A stretch of DNA of 18,646 nucleotides, from positions 1 through 18,646 of the forward strand of contig JAGVZG010000009.1 in the NCBI GenBank assembly GCA_018302765.1, in the 5' to 3' direction. How positions within the stretch are numbered: position 1 is the first letter of the stretch; each line of letters begins with the position of its first letter. The notes under the pieces are model-generated. The model did not search any database. It saw only the letters and a program-made list of their open reading frames with translations, and was not told where the DNA came from. This document shows, piece after piece, positions 3,290-8,488 of this stretch. The position numbers were made by a program, and so were the translations under genes. The stretch is from Candidatus Woesearchaeota archaeon. GTDB lineage: Archaea; Nanobdellota; Nanobdellia; SCGC-AAA011-G17; GW2011-AR18.

Positions 3290-4003
3290 ATGCCTGAAGA
3301 TCAAATTAAATTAGCCTTCTCTAAAGTCAAACAAGATATACAAACCATTTTTGACGAGCTTTTAAATATAAAAAAAGAATTATCTGAGAACAAAGAGAAC
3401 GTTAAAGAAATCCTATTAAGGTTAGAAAGCATTAAAGATGGCAAAAAAAAGCAAAAAGAAGGTATTTCCACAGGAAATGATGGGGCTAATCAATCAATCA
3501 ATCATTTAATCAATCAATCAATCACTAATCAATCATTTAATCAATCAATACATCCCATAAATGCAAATTATGAAGGAATAAAGCAATTTGACCCAGAGAA
3601 AGGAGCTAATCATTTAATCAATCAATCACTAATTAATCAATCAATCAATCACTCGCAAGACGAAAAACTCAAAAATTTAACTGTAGATATAAGCAAAACT
3701 TTTTTATCTTTGTCAAAACAAGAACTAAAACTTTTTTTAACAATATATCAGTTGGAAGACGAAAGTATCGAGCCGTCCTATAAGAATTTAAGCTTAAAAA
3801 TGAATTTATCAGAACATTGCATAAGGAGCCATTTGTCCTCACTTTTAAAGAAAAATACACCAATTATTAAAAAAAGACTAAATAATCACACAAATTTGCT
3901 CTCAATTTCTAAAGAATTTAGGGCTTTAAACCTTAAACAAAAGCTCATAAACTTGTATTACGAGTCAGATCCCCACCAAAAAACACTTTTTGATGTAAAT
4001 TAA
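3290..4003 (+). CDS. Coiled-coil + repeat linker + winged-helix DNA-binding protein, 237 aa
   Basis: N-terminal heptad region (AFSKVKQDI...), INQS-repeat linker, C-terminal wHTH-like segment (LSKQELKLFLTIYQLE...SYKNLSLKMNLSEHCIRSHLSSLLKK). TTTTATAC begins 29 nt upstream. Confidence 0.8.
   Translation: MPEDQIKLAFSKVKQDIQTIFDELLNIKKELSENKENVKEILLRLESIKDGKKKQKEGISTGNDGANQSINHLINQSITNQSFNQSIHPINANYEGIKQFDPEKGANHLINQSLINQSINHSQDEKLKNLTVDISKTFLSLSKQELKLFLTIYQLEDESIEPSYKNLSLKMNLSEHCIRSHLSSLLKKNTPIIKKRLNNHTNLLSISKEFRALNLKQKLINLYYESDPHQKTLFDVN
3465..3486 (+). promoter_or_regulatory. ORB-like element (Orc1/Cdc6 origin recognition box) inside a coding sequence
   Basis: TTTCCACAGGAAATGATGGGGC: perfect dyad ATTTCC-aca-GGAAAT (3464-3478) followed by a GGGG G-string. 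This matches the established archaeal ORB pattern TTCCAnnGGAAA-n(3-5)-GGGG. Only one full copy found in the window. Confidence 0.6.
3488..3549 (+). repeat. (AATC)n tetranucleotide tract 1, interrupted
   Basis: Runs of 4, 4, 2 and 2 AATC units separated by ATTT or ACT; encodes NQSI repeats. Confidence 0.95.
3608..3650 (+). repeat. (AATC)n tetranucleotide tract 2, interrupted
   Basis: Same unit and same ATTT/ACT interruptions as tract 1; both tracts are preceded by GG(G/A)GCT. Confidence 0.95.
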
Positions 4004-4180
4004 CTCTCATTTTTGAATAAATTCTACAAATTTATACGTTTTCCCTCTTTTTTGTTGTTCTACTTACTCTCATTTCTCTATATTTTTATACTATTGCATT
4101 AATCTTTCACAAAAATTTAAATATTTCTTGATTTTAAAGTCTTTCTTATGTATATTAGCAAAAATACTTCAAAATCATTT

Positions 4181-4328
4181 TTTACCGACAGTTCACCGAA
4201 CGGTTCGGTGACGTCACCTACGTTTACCGAACAAACCGAATAAATACTGTAAAAGAGGTTATTAAGGCTTAATAAAGAATAAGAAAAAACTAACTGTTCG
4301 GTAAGTTCGATAAACTGTTCGGTAAGTT
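4181..4328. repeat. Cluster of eight ACCGAA-type motifs (iteron-like/operator array)
   Basis: Six exact ACCGAA/TTCGGT copies (4195, 4204, 4226, 4235, 4297, 4318) and two one-mismatch copies (4184, 4306). Includes the inverted repeat TCACCGAAC-g-GTTCGGTGA (4193-4211) and the 16-bp direct repeat AACTGTTCGGTAAGTT at 4292 and 4313 (21-bp period). Confidence 0.9.
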
Positions 4329-4376
4329 AAAAACTTTAGAAAAGTATAAAAGTAACAAAAAACCTTAAACAATTAG

Positions 4377-4994
4377 ATGGGTTTATTTAGTATTTTTAAA
4401 AAAAAAAGAGACGAAGAGGAACGCGCTGCAAAGATAAACGAAGCTCTAAGAAACTCTTTCTCCAATGTTAAAAAAGATATAGTTCATATTCACAAAGGTT
4501 TTTCAGATCACACAGAGCACGCCTCTAAAAAATTTGAATCAATAGAAAAAAGATTAGAAAGAATAGAAGTAACTTTGAACGTTTTACAACAAACCCGCAG
4601 GCCACAGAGAACTATTGGAAGACCACAACAAATAGAAGAAGTCAATGAGAACGAATTTGAAGCAAATGAAGACGAAGATATTTTAATTAATCAACTAAAA
4701 GGGATTCCTAAAGCAGAACTAAAATTATTCAAAACATTATACGAACTTCAGCAAAGTTTAAATGTAAAACACATCTCTTATAAGTCTTTAGCAAGCTATC
4801 TTTACCCAGGAAAAGATTATAATTCTATTAGATCAACAATAACGCAATTTGTTATAAGGTTATATACAGAAGGTTTAATAGAAAAACAAAGAATAGGCAA
4901 AGAAAACTACGTCAGATTGACTCAGCACGGTCAAAAAGTCATAAAAAATGCTAAAATTAAGAGAATGATTAAAGAAATTGAAGTTTCTCAATAA
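4377..4994 (+). CDS. Coiled-coil + winged-helix DNA-binding protein, 205 aa, paralog of 3290..4003
   Basis: SFSNVKKDI coiled-coil start; IPKAELKLFKTLYELQ...SYKSLASYL...IRSTITQFVIRLYTEGLIEKQRIGKENYVRLT (wHTH with wing). Confidence 0.8.
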   Translation: MGLFSIFKKKRDEEERAAKINEALRNSFSNVKKDIVHIHKGFSDHTEHASKKFESIEKRLERIEVTLNVLQQTRRPQRTIGRPQQIEEVNENEFEANEDEDILINQLKGIPKAELKLFKTLYELQQSLNVKHISYKSLASYLYPGKDYNSIRSTITQFVIRLYTEGLIEKQRIGKENYVRLTQHGQKVIKNAKIKRMIKEIEVSQ

Positions 4995-5062
4995 ATTATT
5001 ATAATCACTAACAAGTAATAAAATAATAGAAAGATTTATAAATAAAAGAAATTTTTTTATCA

Positions 5063-7123: not shown

Positions 7124-7148
7124 CTTTTATATTTTTATCCTAGGCAAA
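7124..7148 (+). promoter_or_regulatory. TATA box + CCTAGG-centred operator-like motif, copy 2
   Basis: CTTTTATATTTTTATCCTAGGCAAA; CCTAGG starts 14 nt before the ATG in both copies. Confidence 0.7.
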
Positions 7149-7152
7149 ACAG

Positions 7153-7464
7153 ATGACAAACCAACCACACAGTCATATTTTTATCAAACCAGATTCAAGA
7201 GTATGTGCAGAAGATGTTTCGTCAATAGCTATGGCTGCAACTCTTTTGTATTTTCAAGAGAAATTAAAAATTAACTATGTTGGAACAAGCGGCGTAGGAG
7301 TAATATACACAAAAGGAGAAGACATTCAATTTGGAGATTATTTTGGAAGGAAATATTATGCAGATATAGAAACGCCAAAAGGTTCAGCAACTTTAGAATT
7401 TTTAATATACAAAGGATGTCCATATGAAAAAAGAAGTACACCCAAAACTAAATGGGTAAACTAG
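7153..7464 (+). CDS. Hypothetical protein, 103 aa
   Basis: ORF track, own promoter motif, no recognised domain. Confidence 0.75.
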   Translation: MTNQPHSHIFIKPDSRVCAEDVSSIAMAATLLYFQEKLKINYVGTSGVGVIYTKGEDIQFGDYFGRKYYADIETPKGSATLEFLIYKGCPYEKRSTPKTKWVN

Positions 7465-7495
7465 TTTTATATACAAGTTCACATAATATTTTTAT

Positions 7496-8350
7496 ATGAA
7501 TCAAGAAGAGGTTGATAAATTATTAAAGAAATTAGAAGTGGATTTAAAAATCAAAGGATTTACAAAAGCAACGATTAAAACCTATTTAACACATTCACAA
7601 GATTTTTTAAAATTTACAAATAAAGAGCCATTGCAGACCACAATAGATGACGTTAAATTATACCAAGTAGCTTTATCAGATAAAAATGCAAAGCCTGCTA
7701 CAGTAATTTTAAAATTATCAGCAATAAAATTTTTATTTAACAAAGTTCTAAAACATAAAATAATAAACGATGACATAGAATATCCAAAATCCCAGAAGAA
7801 AATTCCAGATGCATTAACTAAAGAAGAAGTTCAAAAATTATTATCAACGATTAAAAATTTTAAACACAAATTATTATTAGAATTTATGTATGGTTCTGGA
7901 TTAAGGGTCTCAGAATGTGTTAATTTTAAAGTAAGAGATTTAAATTTAGATAATTTTACAGCAAAAGTTATTTCTGGCAAAGGAAACAAACAAAGAATGA
8001 TTATTCTATCTAAAGATTTTGTATCTAGTATTAGAAACTATTTAAACTTAAGAGAAGAAAAATCTGAATGGTTATTTTCATCCAAAAACTTAGATAAACC
8101 CATGACTGCAAGAATGGCACAAAAAGTAATAGAAAAAGCTGCAAAAGAAGCAGGTTTTCAGAAAAGGGTTTATTGTCACATTTTAAGAAGCAGTTTTGCT
8201 ACACATTTACTTGAAGGCAATGTAGATATACGTTATATTCAAGAGTTATTAGGTCATAGTTCCATATCAACGACACAGAGATATACTAAAGTCAGCATGG
8301 AGCAGTTAAGAAAGATAAAAAGTCCGCTTGATAATATTAATCAAAGCTAA
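7496..8350 (+). CDS. xerA: Xer-type tyrosine recombinase (archaeal XerA-like), 284 aa
   Basis: Full catalytic set: GSGLRVSE (R), GKGNKQR (K), HILR (HxxR), LLGH (H), TTQRY (Y). N-terminal SAM-like domain (TIKTY...). No integron-integrase insertion. A dif-like site lies 868 bp upstream. Confidence 0.85.
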   Translation: MNQEEVDKLLKKLEVDLKIKGFTKATIKTYLTHSQDFLKFTNKEPLQTTIDDVKLYQVALSDKNAKPATVILKLSAIKFLFNKVLKHKIINDDIEYPKSQKKIPDALTKEEVQKLLSTIKNFKHKLLLEFMYGSGLRVSECVNFKVRDLNLDNFTAKVISGKGNKQRMIILSKDFVSSIRNYLNLREEKSEWLFSSKNLDKPMTARMAQKVIEKAAKEAGFQKRVYCHILRSSFATHLLEGNVDIRYIQELLGHSSISTTQRYTKVSMEQLRKIKSPLDNINQS

Positions 8351-8488
8351 AATATTTTAATCATTATAAAGATAATAAACTATAATAAAAAATTAAATAT
8401 TTTCACCGAATAATTATTCGTTAATTATATTTTTAAAATTTCAGTAGAGTATAGAAAAGTGTATAAATTTCTTTATTTTTATACATCT

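Follow-up and report, generated by a model that had tools for sequence, protein, structure and literature searches.

The analysed stretch of DNA (hereafter the window; 18,646 nt) is the entire contig C23 of a 1.02-Mb genome of Woesearchaeota (DPANN). Its features of interest are collected in Table 1: the gene of a winged-helix protein (wHTH1) with an ORB embedded in it, a repeat-bearing spacer, the gene of a second such protein (wHTH2), a cargo segment, a dif-like site and the recombinase gene xerA. All the elements listed in an earlier note on this DNA—the ORB-like box, the AATC tracts, the array, the wHTH pair, the dif-like site and xerA—were found to be present and non-random. Every assignment of a protein to a DNA site at the locus was made from position, conservation and analogy.

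Table 1. Features of the wHTH–Xer region of the window, with the basis of each assignment.
Feature	Position	Strand	Basis or remark
wHTH1 gene (237 aa)	3290-4003	+	AlphaFold model, orthologues in relatives
Embedded ORB TTCCACAGGAAATGATGGGG, TTCCA-CA-GGAAA-TGAT-GGGG-CT	3466-3487 (box 3466-3485)	+	Motif match
AATC tetranucleotide repeats, two blocks	3488-3654 (about 3488-3554, 3608-3654)	+	Sequence
Motif aaCTCTCAyTTTT, two copies	4004-4014, 4066-4075	+	Order-wide conservation
ACCGAAC-type array, 8 repeats, two blocks	4183-4330 (4183-4245, 4293-4330)		Repeat counts
wHTH2 gene (205 aa)	4377-4994	+	AlphaFold model, alignment
Fic/SoFic-like gene	5063-5848	+	Pfam; PADLOC SoFic E 1.5e-12
HATPase_c_2 gene	5873-6469	-	Pfam
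Small ORF	6742-7122	+	Part of cargo segment 5063-7464
Small ORF	7153-7464	+	Part of cargo segment 5063-7464
dif-like site AGTTCACATAA-TATTT-TTATATGAATC	7476-7502		Homologous sites in relatives
xerA, tyrosine recombinase (284 aa)	7496-8350	+	Pfam PF13495 + PF00589
Distal element TTTCACCGAATAATTATTCG	8401-8422		wHTH2-type half-site joined to 14-bp palindrome at 8407-8420

The AlphaFold model of wHTH1 consists of a long N-terminal coiled-coil helix, a disordered linker (residues about 59–117) and a C-terminal winged helix; the recognition helix, LSExCIRxH/YxSSL, is conserved order-wide. Orthologues were present in 17 of the 18 loci compared, and members of the family occurred in 219 of the 301 genomes sampled from the phylum. 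Foldseek returned ArsR/MarR-type wHTH matches alone (E 1.6e-3 or weaker), and some orthologues gave weak matches to DnaD_N and HTH_36. The earlier note had called the second wHTH protein a paralog of the first, and profile–profile comparison of the two (hhalign probability 96%, E 1.7e-9) supports a distant paralogy. The fold matches of both proteins are to generic wHTH structures, with E-values of about 1e-3.

The embedded ORB codes for the residues STGNDG of the disordered linker of wHTH1, and 0.01 matches to the ORB-like box are expected in window shuffles. Its dyad core TTCCA-NN-GGAAA is exact at 3466–3477, including TTCC and GAA, the invariant motifs of ORBs (PMC1904270), and matches the core of ORB1 when compared with P. 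furiosus ORB1–3. The G-string GGGG follows at 3482–3485, 3–4 nt after the core, and reads GGGG or GG[GT]G in the relatives and in the cdc6-side copies. The extended motif has three exact matches in the genome, two beside cdc6 and the third inside wHTH1; in the contigs examined it likewise lay only beside cdc6 and inside wHTH1, except for a few one-mismatch matches elsewhere in the relatives G025 and G004. An ORB or near-ORB was found within the wHTH1 gene of all 18 relatives examined. The codons at this place are fixed though rare: Ser is TCC in 16/16 (background 8%) and Gly is GGG in 15/16 (background 15%). Moreover, the reading frame over the ORB is a different one in G027 and over an additional ORB copy in G003, and the gene of G209 contains two ORBs in inverted orientation, 90 bp apart. 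Since synonymous rare codons are fixed and the motif survives in other reading frames, the embedded ORB is evidently kept by selection on the DNA itself.

The two AATC blocks start directly after the ORB, are mostly G-free on the top strand and encode NQSI-type peptide repeats in a region disordered in the wHTH1 model, and at the same place the relatives have other 4-nt units (CATT, AAAC/AACA or ATTC). The spacer between wHTH1 and wHTH2, which measures 160–740 bp in all relatives and contains two classes of repeats, is unusually large for a 1-Mb genome. One class is the motif aaCTCTCAyTTTT, whose first copy begins immediately past the wHTH1 stop codon and which occurs in the spacer of the relatives in 2–7 same-strand copies, 40–125 bp apart. 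From its position and conservation, this motif is probably the binding site of wHTH1.

The other class is the ACCGAAC-type array, which includes the palindrome GGTGACGTCACC (4207–4218) and has five exact ACCGAAC copies versus 0.33 expected, i.e., 5 of the 6 copies of the genome. It ends about 15 nt upstream of a TATA-like box of wHTH2 (about 4343–4352). An array occupies this position in each of the relatives, and its repeat word differs between lineages and sorts with the wHTH2 recognition helix: all six genomes with the helix YNSIRSTITQFxxRL have ACCGAAC, and both genomes with xEVRSTLSEYISFL have CTACGAA. This co-variation follows kinship and is therefore not independent evidence. The wHTH2 protein begins with a conserved hydrophobic-then-basic peptide, MGLFSIFKKK, and in its AlphaFold model a long helix and an acidic disordered linker lead to a C-terminal winged helix, whose recognition helix is variable. 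Among PDB structures, TubR, which binds plasmid centromeres, ranked first (6aht, E 5e-4), ahead of ArsR/MarR-type proteins; the named database relatives are annotated as hypothetical, and the sole taxonomic label among them is Woesearchaeota. An oligomer of wHTH2 would bind the array before its own promoter and the distal half-site beyond the recombinase, resulting in autoregulation. The analogy with iteron-binding centromere proteins (e.g., TubR) suggests that wHTH2 might in addition organise or tether the DNA near the origin, and its N-terminal peptide would suit membrane contact.

A repeat array directly upstream of the gene of the candidate binding protein, as in iteron centromeres, is indeed present at wHTH2. 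The arrangement resembles TubR–tubC (type III partition) and ParR–parC in having repeats of about 10–12 bp, in two blocks, directly 5' of the gene of the binding protein, and TubR also in its wHTH fold, with weak similarity. Unlike those systems, the locus is chromosomal, wHTH2 has a long coiled coil and the hydrophobic-basic N-terminus, and no partition NTPase family (TubZ, ParM, ParA or SegA) was seen among the window ORFs or beside wHTH2.

A dif site has two imperfect inverted arms of 11 bp, 6 bp apart, with TAA-N6-8-TTA at their inner ends. The dif-like site of the window, which overlaps the start codon of Xer (ATG at 7496), is an imperfect 11-5-11 inverted repeat (TAA-N5-TTA) with a 5-nt spacer, 8 of 11 complementary arm positions and a weak right arm, and about 70 loosely similar inverted repeats occur genome-wide under the same criteria. 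Homologous sites were found in G010 (a perfect 11-6-11), G036, G014, G034, G031 and G025, those of G010, G036, G014, G034 and G025 fitting the 6-nt spacing and resembling the bacterial dif core; in G001, only the left arm survives. Overall, at least six genera have a site of the pattern CRYATAA-N6-TTATRYG in the interval from wHTH2 to Xer. By sequence, the window site appears related to bacterial dif, and the relatives have cleaner 11-6-11 versions in the corresponding position. In G025, the site lies 0.5 kb after wHTH2, with Xer displaced by 9 kb.

The recombinase has an N-terminal SAM-like and a catalytic domain. Its best solved relative was XerA of P. abyssi (4a8e), aligned almost end to end over residues 7–273 with an E-value of 1e-40, compared with 1e-35 for XerA of T. 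acidophilum (5hxy). The conserved stretches of the alignment presumably hold the active-site Arg, His-x-x-Arg, His and Tyr. Of three PF00589 matches in the genome (this protein, E 1.5e-45; a 408-aa frame, 3e-19; a fragment, 6e-7), it is by sequence the only XerA-like copy. XerA would resolve chromosome dimers at the dif-like site over its own start codon, with self-regulation as a further possibility. The distal element 3' of the recombinase is conserved in G001; in G002 it is identical over CACCGAATAATTATTCGT, though the recombinase there is of a different type. The Xer/dif systems known from Sulfolobales (Cortez et al., 2010, PMC2958812), with dif near xerA, and from haloarchaea (PMC11840125), with dif 5' of the xerA operon, are similar in that one XerA-type recombinase is paired with an imperfect inverted repeat next to its gene, in the absence of FtsK. 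In contrast, the present site overlaps the xerA start codon within about 10–25 kb of a cdc6 origin, its window copy has a 5-nt spacer, and in G025 it adjoins the wHTH pair, not xerA.

The single cdc6 of the genome lies beyond the left end of the window, on contig C15, together with PolD-DP2 (dp2), DP1 (dp1), two canonical ORBs, a PRC-barrel gene and LonB. The closest relative, G001, is collinear first with C15, from 30.7 to 35.9 kb, and past that with C23, starting at base 438. Since it runs across both contigs, C15 was placed at the left end of the window by way of this relative rather than by assembly, and the embedded ORB falls at least 7.7 kb from the two ORBs of C15. This comparison shows that an ordinary origin (ORBs, cdc6 and PolD dp1 and dp2) adjoins the window on the left. 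The earlier note was right that orc1/cdc6 is absent from the window, but the gene lies just past its end. Its proposal of an origin served by the wHTH pair instead of an adjacent cdc6 was rejected: an oriC-cdc6-dp1-dp2 island with two ORBs lies on the adjoining contig and is also near the pair in the relatives. Locating cdc6 and the ORBs, a check that the note had called for, gave cdc6 and two ORBs on C15 and the third exact match inside wHTH1.

The distance between cdc6 and the pair was 3–33 kb in 16 relatives, mostly 5–15 kb: where both were on one contig, 7.5–15 kb in 10 relatives and 33 kb in one, and 3–7 kb in five more genomes, of which two represent a family outside the order. The order ArgRS, ORF134, wHTH1, large spacer, wHTH2, dif-like site and tyrosine recombinase was found in 17/18 loci of the family and order, so that the synteny check bore out a conserved linkage, not an accidental proximity. 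The layout of embedded ORB, wHTH pair and dif/Xer near a cdc6 origin is common to relatives across the order, and no description of it was found in the literature searched. We therefore consider it somewhat more likely than not (roughly 55%) that Woesearchaeales have a conserved chromosome-maintenance block near the origin, of which this region is the right-hand part. The idea that initiation and dimer resolution are co-located holds in so far as initiation functions and dif/Xer lie within about 10–25 kb of one another; nothing places initiation at the wHTH1 gene or the spacer.

The nearest known parallel for the embedded ORB is the oriC-cdc6-dp1-dp2 island of Thermococcales, where a second ORB cluster inside dp1 is bound by Cdc6/Orc1 (Matsunaga et al., 2007, PMC1904270). 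The gene order ORBs-cdc6-dp1-dp2, the ORB core TTCCA-NN-GGAAAT and an extra intragenic ORB near the origin, conserved within the order, are shared. Unlike in Thermococcales, the intragenic ORB is a predicted site on the other side of the origin, 6–8 kb away, usually in single copy, with the G-string 3–4 nt after the core versus about 10 in Pyrococcus, and its host gene is that of a lineage-specific DNA-binding protein rather than dp1. For the Pyrococcus dp1 cluster, a role as outer anchor or loop partner was proposed, and the embedded ORB would act likewise, as a satellite Orc1/Cdc6 site cooperating with the cdc6-side ORBs and not as an independent origin. By the same analogy, a single copy may fail to hold Orc1 in vivo, given that single mini-ORBs are unbound in Pyrococcus (PMC1904270).

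It appears quite improbable that the embedded ORB, the AT-rich spacer and the array form a second independent origin with wHTH1 and wHTH2 as initiators or specificity factors, on the model of oriC3 of Sulfolobus with its adjacent winged-helix initiator WhiP (PMC3607249). The DNA-level selection on the ORB, the large spacer with its two repeat classes, the inverted ORB pair of G209 and the weak DnaD_N and HTH_36 matches point in this direction, and a gene of a winged-helix protein does lie beside origin-type DNA elements as at oriC3. Against this, the genome has one cdc6, whose canonical island is only 6–8 kb away, a strand-bias switch is absent at the hub and at cdc6 in all contigs tested, and instead of clustered inverted ORBs flanking an AT-rich region, the window has a single copy within a coding region, the clustered copies being on C15. 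WhiP and Cdt1 have two tandem winged-helix domains, whereas wHTH1 and wHTH2 have one each, after a coiled coil and a disordered linker, and no evidence of homology to WhiP/Cdt1 was obtained for either.

That both proteins are ordinary autoregulated repressors without a role in replication or segregation, the arrays being operators, is unlikely, albeit in agreement with the predominance of ArsR/MarR-type repressors among the fold matches, the end of the array just 5' of the wHTH2 TATA-like box and the lack of a visible partition ATPase. Bound at the ORB, Orc1/Cdc6 would then regulate wHTH1 or form a roadblock there, and the linkage to cdc6 and Xer would reflect the conserved gene order of small, stable genomes. 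Nevertheless, eight sites across 150 bp plus a distal site 4 kb off exceed the needs of a simple operator, the cdc6 linkage also holds in the family outside the order, and the dif-like site of G025 stays beside wHTH2 while Xer is 9 kb off. The alternative raised in the earlier note, that a plasmid or virus replicon integrated here and left a remnant, is highly improbable; such a remnant would comprise iterons, a Rep-like wHTH protein and an integrase plus att site. What fits it concerns the stretch from wHTH2 to the recombinase: its content varies even within the genus, the cargo contains a SoFic-like gene and a PIN gene, the recombinase type alternates between XerA-like and a divergent integrase, and wHTH2-type half-sites flank the segment. 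None of the four cargo genes has a match between wHTH2 and Xer in the same-genus G001, and G002 retains ORF126 alone. Such comparisons show that cargo (Fic and others) accumulated between wHTH2 and dif/Xer as the sole variable stretch. The wHTH pair, for which the replicon alternative found no support, is inherited vertically, because it keeps a fixed chromosomal position (17/18 loci), its identities fall with kinship and no wHTH1 relatives were found among the viral contigs of IMG/VR; moreover, profile searches gave no match to a Rep family, and the recombinase is the sole XerA-like copy of the genome.

The skew check proposed in the earlier note did not mark an origin, as strand bias ran without a switch at the hub or at cdc6 in the contigs tested. 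Several relatives have a one-signed strand skew with no switch at the origin. In the complete relative G025, one strand is C/A-rich all round with balanced gene orientation, and origin, dif and Xer lie within 27 kb of one another. The skew affects both GC and AT and is lineage-specific, being absent in G209; it is compatible with a coinciding origin and terminus. Monotonic cumulative GC skew is known from CPR Microgenomates (Ch65, Collierbacteria and Beckwithbacteria), for which an origin next to the terminus or unidirectional theta replication was proposed (PMC7143001). The uniform C/A-rich strand and balanced gene orientation of G025 are similar; unlike in Microgenomates, the organisms are archaea, GC and AT skew are both affected in a lineage-specific manner, and origin, dif and Xer can be located, within 27 kb. 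A far-reaching and distinctly speculative extension is that in Woesearchaeales the origin, a centromere-like array with a membrane-tethering wHTH protein and dif form one hub of up to 25 kb, with essentially unidirectional replication in the lineages of one-signed skew (G025 and probably this genome). Dif would then lie beside oriC because origin and terminus coincide.

The embedded ORB is a clear case of overlapping codes, a replication-type motif kept by DNA-level selection in a protein-coding linker, across frame changes and order-wide. If the skew reflects unidirectional replication, chromosome copying would both begin and finish at this locus. What steers archaeal XerA towards resolution in the absence of FtsK is a standing question, and chromosome segregation in DPANN is, to our knowledge, poorly understood. 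At this locus the origin, dif and Xer are physically linked to a pair of lineage-specific DNA-binding proteins whose site arrays co-vary, which offers concrete candidate partners for these processes.

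The single Orc1/Cdc6 gene of this genome (G000; 1.02 Mb in 28 contigs, ~29-30% G+C, estimated complete) lies on contig C15; directly upstream of it are two ORBs in direct repeat (TTCCAAAGGAAATGTAGGTGT), and the order is dp2, dp1, cdc6, ORBs, a PRC-barrel gene and LonB, which is the type of replication island (dp2, dp1, cdc6, ORBs) known from Thermococcales. In the same-genus genome G001, a stretch collinear with C15:30.7-35.9 kb runs straight on into sequence collinear with the present contig (the whole of C23) from base 438; therefore, the cdc6-side ORBs and the ORB embedded in the wHTH1 gene are at least 7.7 kb apart in G000, and 5.9 kb apart in G001. 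The earlier note had suggested, should its sites be real, an origin without cdc6 beside it, a reading that did not hold, as the gene and its two ORBs sit just across a contig break. The same proximity, 3-33 kb from cdc6 to the wHTH pair, was seen in 16 relatives: 7.5-15 kb on the same contig in 10 and 33 kb in one, and 3-7 kb in a further five, of which two belong to a family outside the order. In the scanned contigs and complete genomes, the extended ORB motif was found beside cdc6 and inside wHTH1, usually in opposite orientations, and elsewhere there were only a few matches with one mismatch each, in G025 and G004. There are two small PRC-barrel proteins, one adjoining the cdc6-side ORBs (L152:7679-7939, a fetched stretch) and the other adjoining TraB in the window; PRC-barrel proteins take part in archaeal cell division.

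Coordinates of features along the contig
Feature	Position	Strand
ArgRS	948-2765	+
ORF134	2803-3207	+
wHTH1	3290-4003	+
ORB-like 20-mer, TTCCACAGGAAATGATGGGG	3466-3485	
wHTH1 linker with tetranucleotide repeats	3488-3654	
Spacer, 373 bp	4004-4376	
Two blocks with 8 repeats, variants included	4183-4245, 4293-4330	
ACCGAAC, 5 copies	4195-4323	
wHTH2	4377-4994	+
dif-type half-site, GAAGTTCGTATAATG	4733-4760	-
Fic	5063-5848	+
HATPase_c_2 protein	5873-6469	-
Two small ORFs	6742-7122, 7153-7464	+
dif-like site	7476-7502	
Xer-type recombinase	7496-8350	+
Half-site fused with palindrome (palindrome 8407-8420)	8401-8422	
Small ORFs including a PIN gene; TraB, PRC-barrel and pilin-like genes; intein-bearing T2SSE-type ATPase	right of 8350	
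Small PRC-barrel protein adjoining TraB	11658-11954	
T2SSE-type secretion/pilus ATPase, 1281 aa	14705-18550	

The ORB-like box in wHTH1 is present and non-random, with 0.01 matches expected from window shuffles. It codes for STGNDG within the order-wide motif SSTGNxGV of the disordered linker, and the pattern TTCCA-NN-GGAAA-N3/4-GGGG was present in 14 of 18 wHTH1 genes, the remaining four being off by one to three bases. Codon usage at the box was analyzed in 16 wHTH1 genes with a common reading frame: the Ser was TCC in all 16 (8% of Ser codons in the background), the first Gly was GGA in 14/14 (background 42%) and the second GGG in 15/16 (background 15%). Moreover, the codon preceding the Ser always ended in T regardless of the residue, and the variable residues coincide exactly with the unconstrained ORB positions. 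The box also changes frame: a perfect copy in G027 is read in another frame, as VPQERMGS, a second copy in G003 lies ~90 nt downstream and is also in another frame, and G209 has an inverted pair inside the gene, 90 bp apart. Judging from these sequence patterns, the embedded ORB is under selection as DNA, and a purely protein-level account is untenable because the box changes frame in relatives, although kin are not independent. Its core agrees with that of the Pyrococcus furiosus ORBs, whose invariant motifs are TTCC and GAA, and a Cdc6-bound ORB cluster within the dp1 gene has been documented (PMC1904270).

The wHTH1 linker, here and in the orthologous stretches L034-L051, consists of tetranucleotide repeats, the unit of which depends on the lineage (AATC, CATT, AAAC/AACA or ATTC). 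The peptide repeats shift with the DNA unit (NQSI, HSFI, NKQT), and several relatives have runs of AATC type in their non-coding spacer as well. This suggests either slippage-driven turnover or a putative DNA-level role beside the ORB.

The ACCGAA array noticed earlier in the spacer was borne out, the ACCGAAC copies comparing with 0.33 expected and making up 5/6 of those in the whole genome. The two repeat blocks flank the palindrome GGTGACGTCACC, and the array ends ~15 nt ahead of a TATA-like box. Every relative has a large spacer (160-740 bp), unusual for such compact genomes, with two repeat classes. In most relatives, the first, aaCTCTCAyTTTT, starts at the stop codon of wHTH1 or a few bases past it, with 2-7 same-strand copies per spacer; like the wHTH1 recognition helix, it is conserved in sequence throughout the order. 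The second is an array directly upstream of the wHTH2 promoter with a lineage-specific repeat word: six genomes that share the same helix, YNSIRSTITQFxxRL, have ACCGAAC, two with the helix xEVRSTLSEYISFL have CTACGAA, and the remaining genomes have ACGTCGA, ACGTCAC, AGTTAAC, TCACTAA and others. A GACGTC at the center is common. Joint evolution of wHTH2 and its putative sites is only suggested, because the pairing of helix and word tracks kinship. The whole-window Rfam scan (E up to 1) gave no match in the spacer, which thus contains no known RNA family.

The second wHTH gene is indeed a paralogue of the first, albeit a distant one (hhalign probability 96%, E 1.7e-9), and in the models of both proteins a long helix at the N-terminus is followed by a disordered linker and, at the C-terminus, a winged helix; the wHTH2 N-terminus M-G-L/F-F/W-x-F-F-K-K-K is conserved. 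Named database relatives of the window proteins are annotated as Candidatus Woesearchaeota, and the matches in the ESM Atlas fell only into Woesearchaeota/Nanobdellota clusters, none with a name. The wHTH1 family was present in 219 of 301 sampled genomes of the phylum, with full-length matches mostly in this order and one further family; this tally takes in the unpublished genomes G265 and G266, on which the other claims do not rest. Two genomes of the same order (G030 and G275, family f7, 93-97% complete) had no wHTH1 match, and in G030 neither a Cdc6_C match nor wHTH2 was found; they may represent a lineage without both initiator and pair.

Synteny was checked by fetching 18 relatives' loci and mapping the window proteins onto each. 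ORF203, ArgRS, ORF134, wHTH1, the large spacer and wHTH2 kept the same order in 17 of them. In most loci, a recombinase followed 1-4 kb past wHTH2, either XerA-like (39-89% identical) or a divergent integrase (~28%), and the ORF243-TraB genes often picked up again beyond it. A search of 40 relatives likewise found wHTH2 and a tyrosine recombinase to be repeated neighbors. As for the ArgRS, its identity is ~40% to G001 and 76% to G002, with flanking genes at ~60-80%, which suggests replacement by a distant version in G001. In the window, a SoFic-like Fic gene (PADLOC E 1.5e-12) is convergent with the HATPase_c_2 gene, and Fic homologues near Xer also occur in G005 and G031. An intein that carries a LAGLIDADG endonuclease domain splits the T2SSE-type ATPase; the G209 orthologue of this ATPase matches in two blocks, the insert missing.

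The recombinase matches Pyrococcus abyssi XerA nearly end to end (E 1e-40), which supports its identification as xerA, and its own integrase-family score is far above those of the two other such hits in the genome. The dif-like site directly upstream (AGTTCACATAA-TATTT-TTATATGAATC) is unremarkable alone, as the same loose filter passes ~70 inverted repeats genome-wide, but clearly related, more symmetric sites occupy the matching position in relatives: a perfect one in G010 (CCTTCGTATAA-TGTACC-TTATACGAAGG), TTCGTCTAA-TGCTAA-TTAGATGAA in G036, others with 9/11 (G014, G034) or 8/11 (G031) complementary positions, and AGTACACATAA-TGTCAA-TTATGCGAACC in G025, 0.5 kb past wHTH2 with its Xer 9 kb further on. 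They share CATAA-N6-TTATG with bacterial dif, and dif is close to xerA in Sulfolobales (PMC2958812) and haloarchaea (PMC11840125). Paired dif-like sites 400-700 bp apart lie upstream of Xer in G005 (L035:4840, 5244) and G034 (L043:1068, 1785); with the variable cargo, they could point to Xer-mediated element insertion at dif. The dif-type half-site inside wHTH2, within the LFKTLYELQ codons, is conserved in G001 and G006 with the second arm absent, and may be a coincidence. Downstream of the recombinase, a wHTH2-type half-site (CACCGAA) fused with a 14-bp palindrome is conserved in G001 and G002. This palindrome was rejected as dif: its TAA and TTA adjoin each other with no spacer, it carries the half-site and, in G002, stands next to a different type of recombinase.

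Strand skew was analyzed in the complete relative G025 (736,802 bp). Inside 27 kb, this chromosome has cdc6 and an ORB at 270.5-272 kb, the wHTH pair at 286.6-287.9 kb, dif at 288.4 kb and Xer at 297 kb. Its cumulative GC and TA skews fell monotonically without a switch (total G-C ~-24,600), with genes evenly split between strands. Third-position skew, computed per gene strand in 80-kb bins, had the same sign in every bin (GC3 -0.14 to -0.30, AT3 +0.06 to +0.19), one strand being C- and A-rich irrespective of gene orientation over the whole 737 kb. There was no sign change across the origin in the cdc6/hub contigs of G031, G004, G036 and G001 or in C15 and C23; the G015 contig was ambiguous, since its skew changes weakly ~5 kb to the right of the hub. 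The C/A-rich strand was the wHTH-coding one in 6/7 genomes. The second complete genome of the order, G209, had no offset whatsoever, so the one-signed skew is lineage-specific. The skew check proposed in the earlier note thus cannot place the origin here. For CPR bacteria with a similar monotonic skew, an adjacent origin and terminus or unidirectional replication were proposed (PMC7143001); our literature search found no paper tying Woesearchaeota, GC skew and origins together. The skew is compatible with a coinciding origin and terminus, which is not a demonstration.

How the wHTH pair relates to replication can be read in several ways. In the wHTH2 model, the top PDB match was the plasmid centromere-binding protein TubR (E 5e-4), ArsR/MarR-type regulators following with similar scores, and no partition NTPase gene was found near wHTH2; that both proteins are plain transcription regulators is considered unlikely. 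A second origin at the pair appears quite doubtful. The AATC tracts, themselves real, were weighed as a possible unwinding element; they have near-background GC and double as the disordered protein linker. The remnant of an integrated replicon, offered by the earlier note as its alternative, is very improbable. The CTCTCAyTTTT motif is similar to the end of wHTH1, for which reason its copies were considered as possible att relics of integration; no matching copy was found at the far end of the cargo. A wHTH1 pattern scan found no relatives in viral contigs. Since gene order is conserved and the cargo between wHTH2 and the recombinase varies even inside the genus, the pair is, by this comparison, a vertically inherited core followed by a variable cargo spot.

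Overall, the earlier note's observation is confirmed, all five of its elements being present and non-random, and its interpretation is half right: elements of initiation type and of resolution type are linked in a conserved way, together with a dedicated wHTH pair, but this hub adjoins a canonical cdc6 origin and does not take its place. The reading we favor, at a probability of about 0.55, is that the embedded box would be a satellite ORB and the locus an origin-proximal organiser, with binding predicted.
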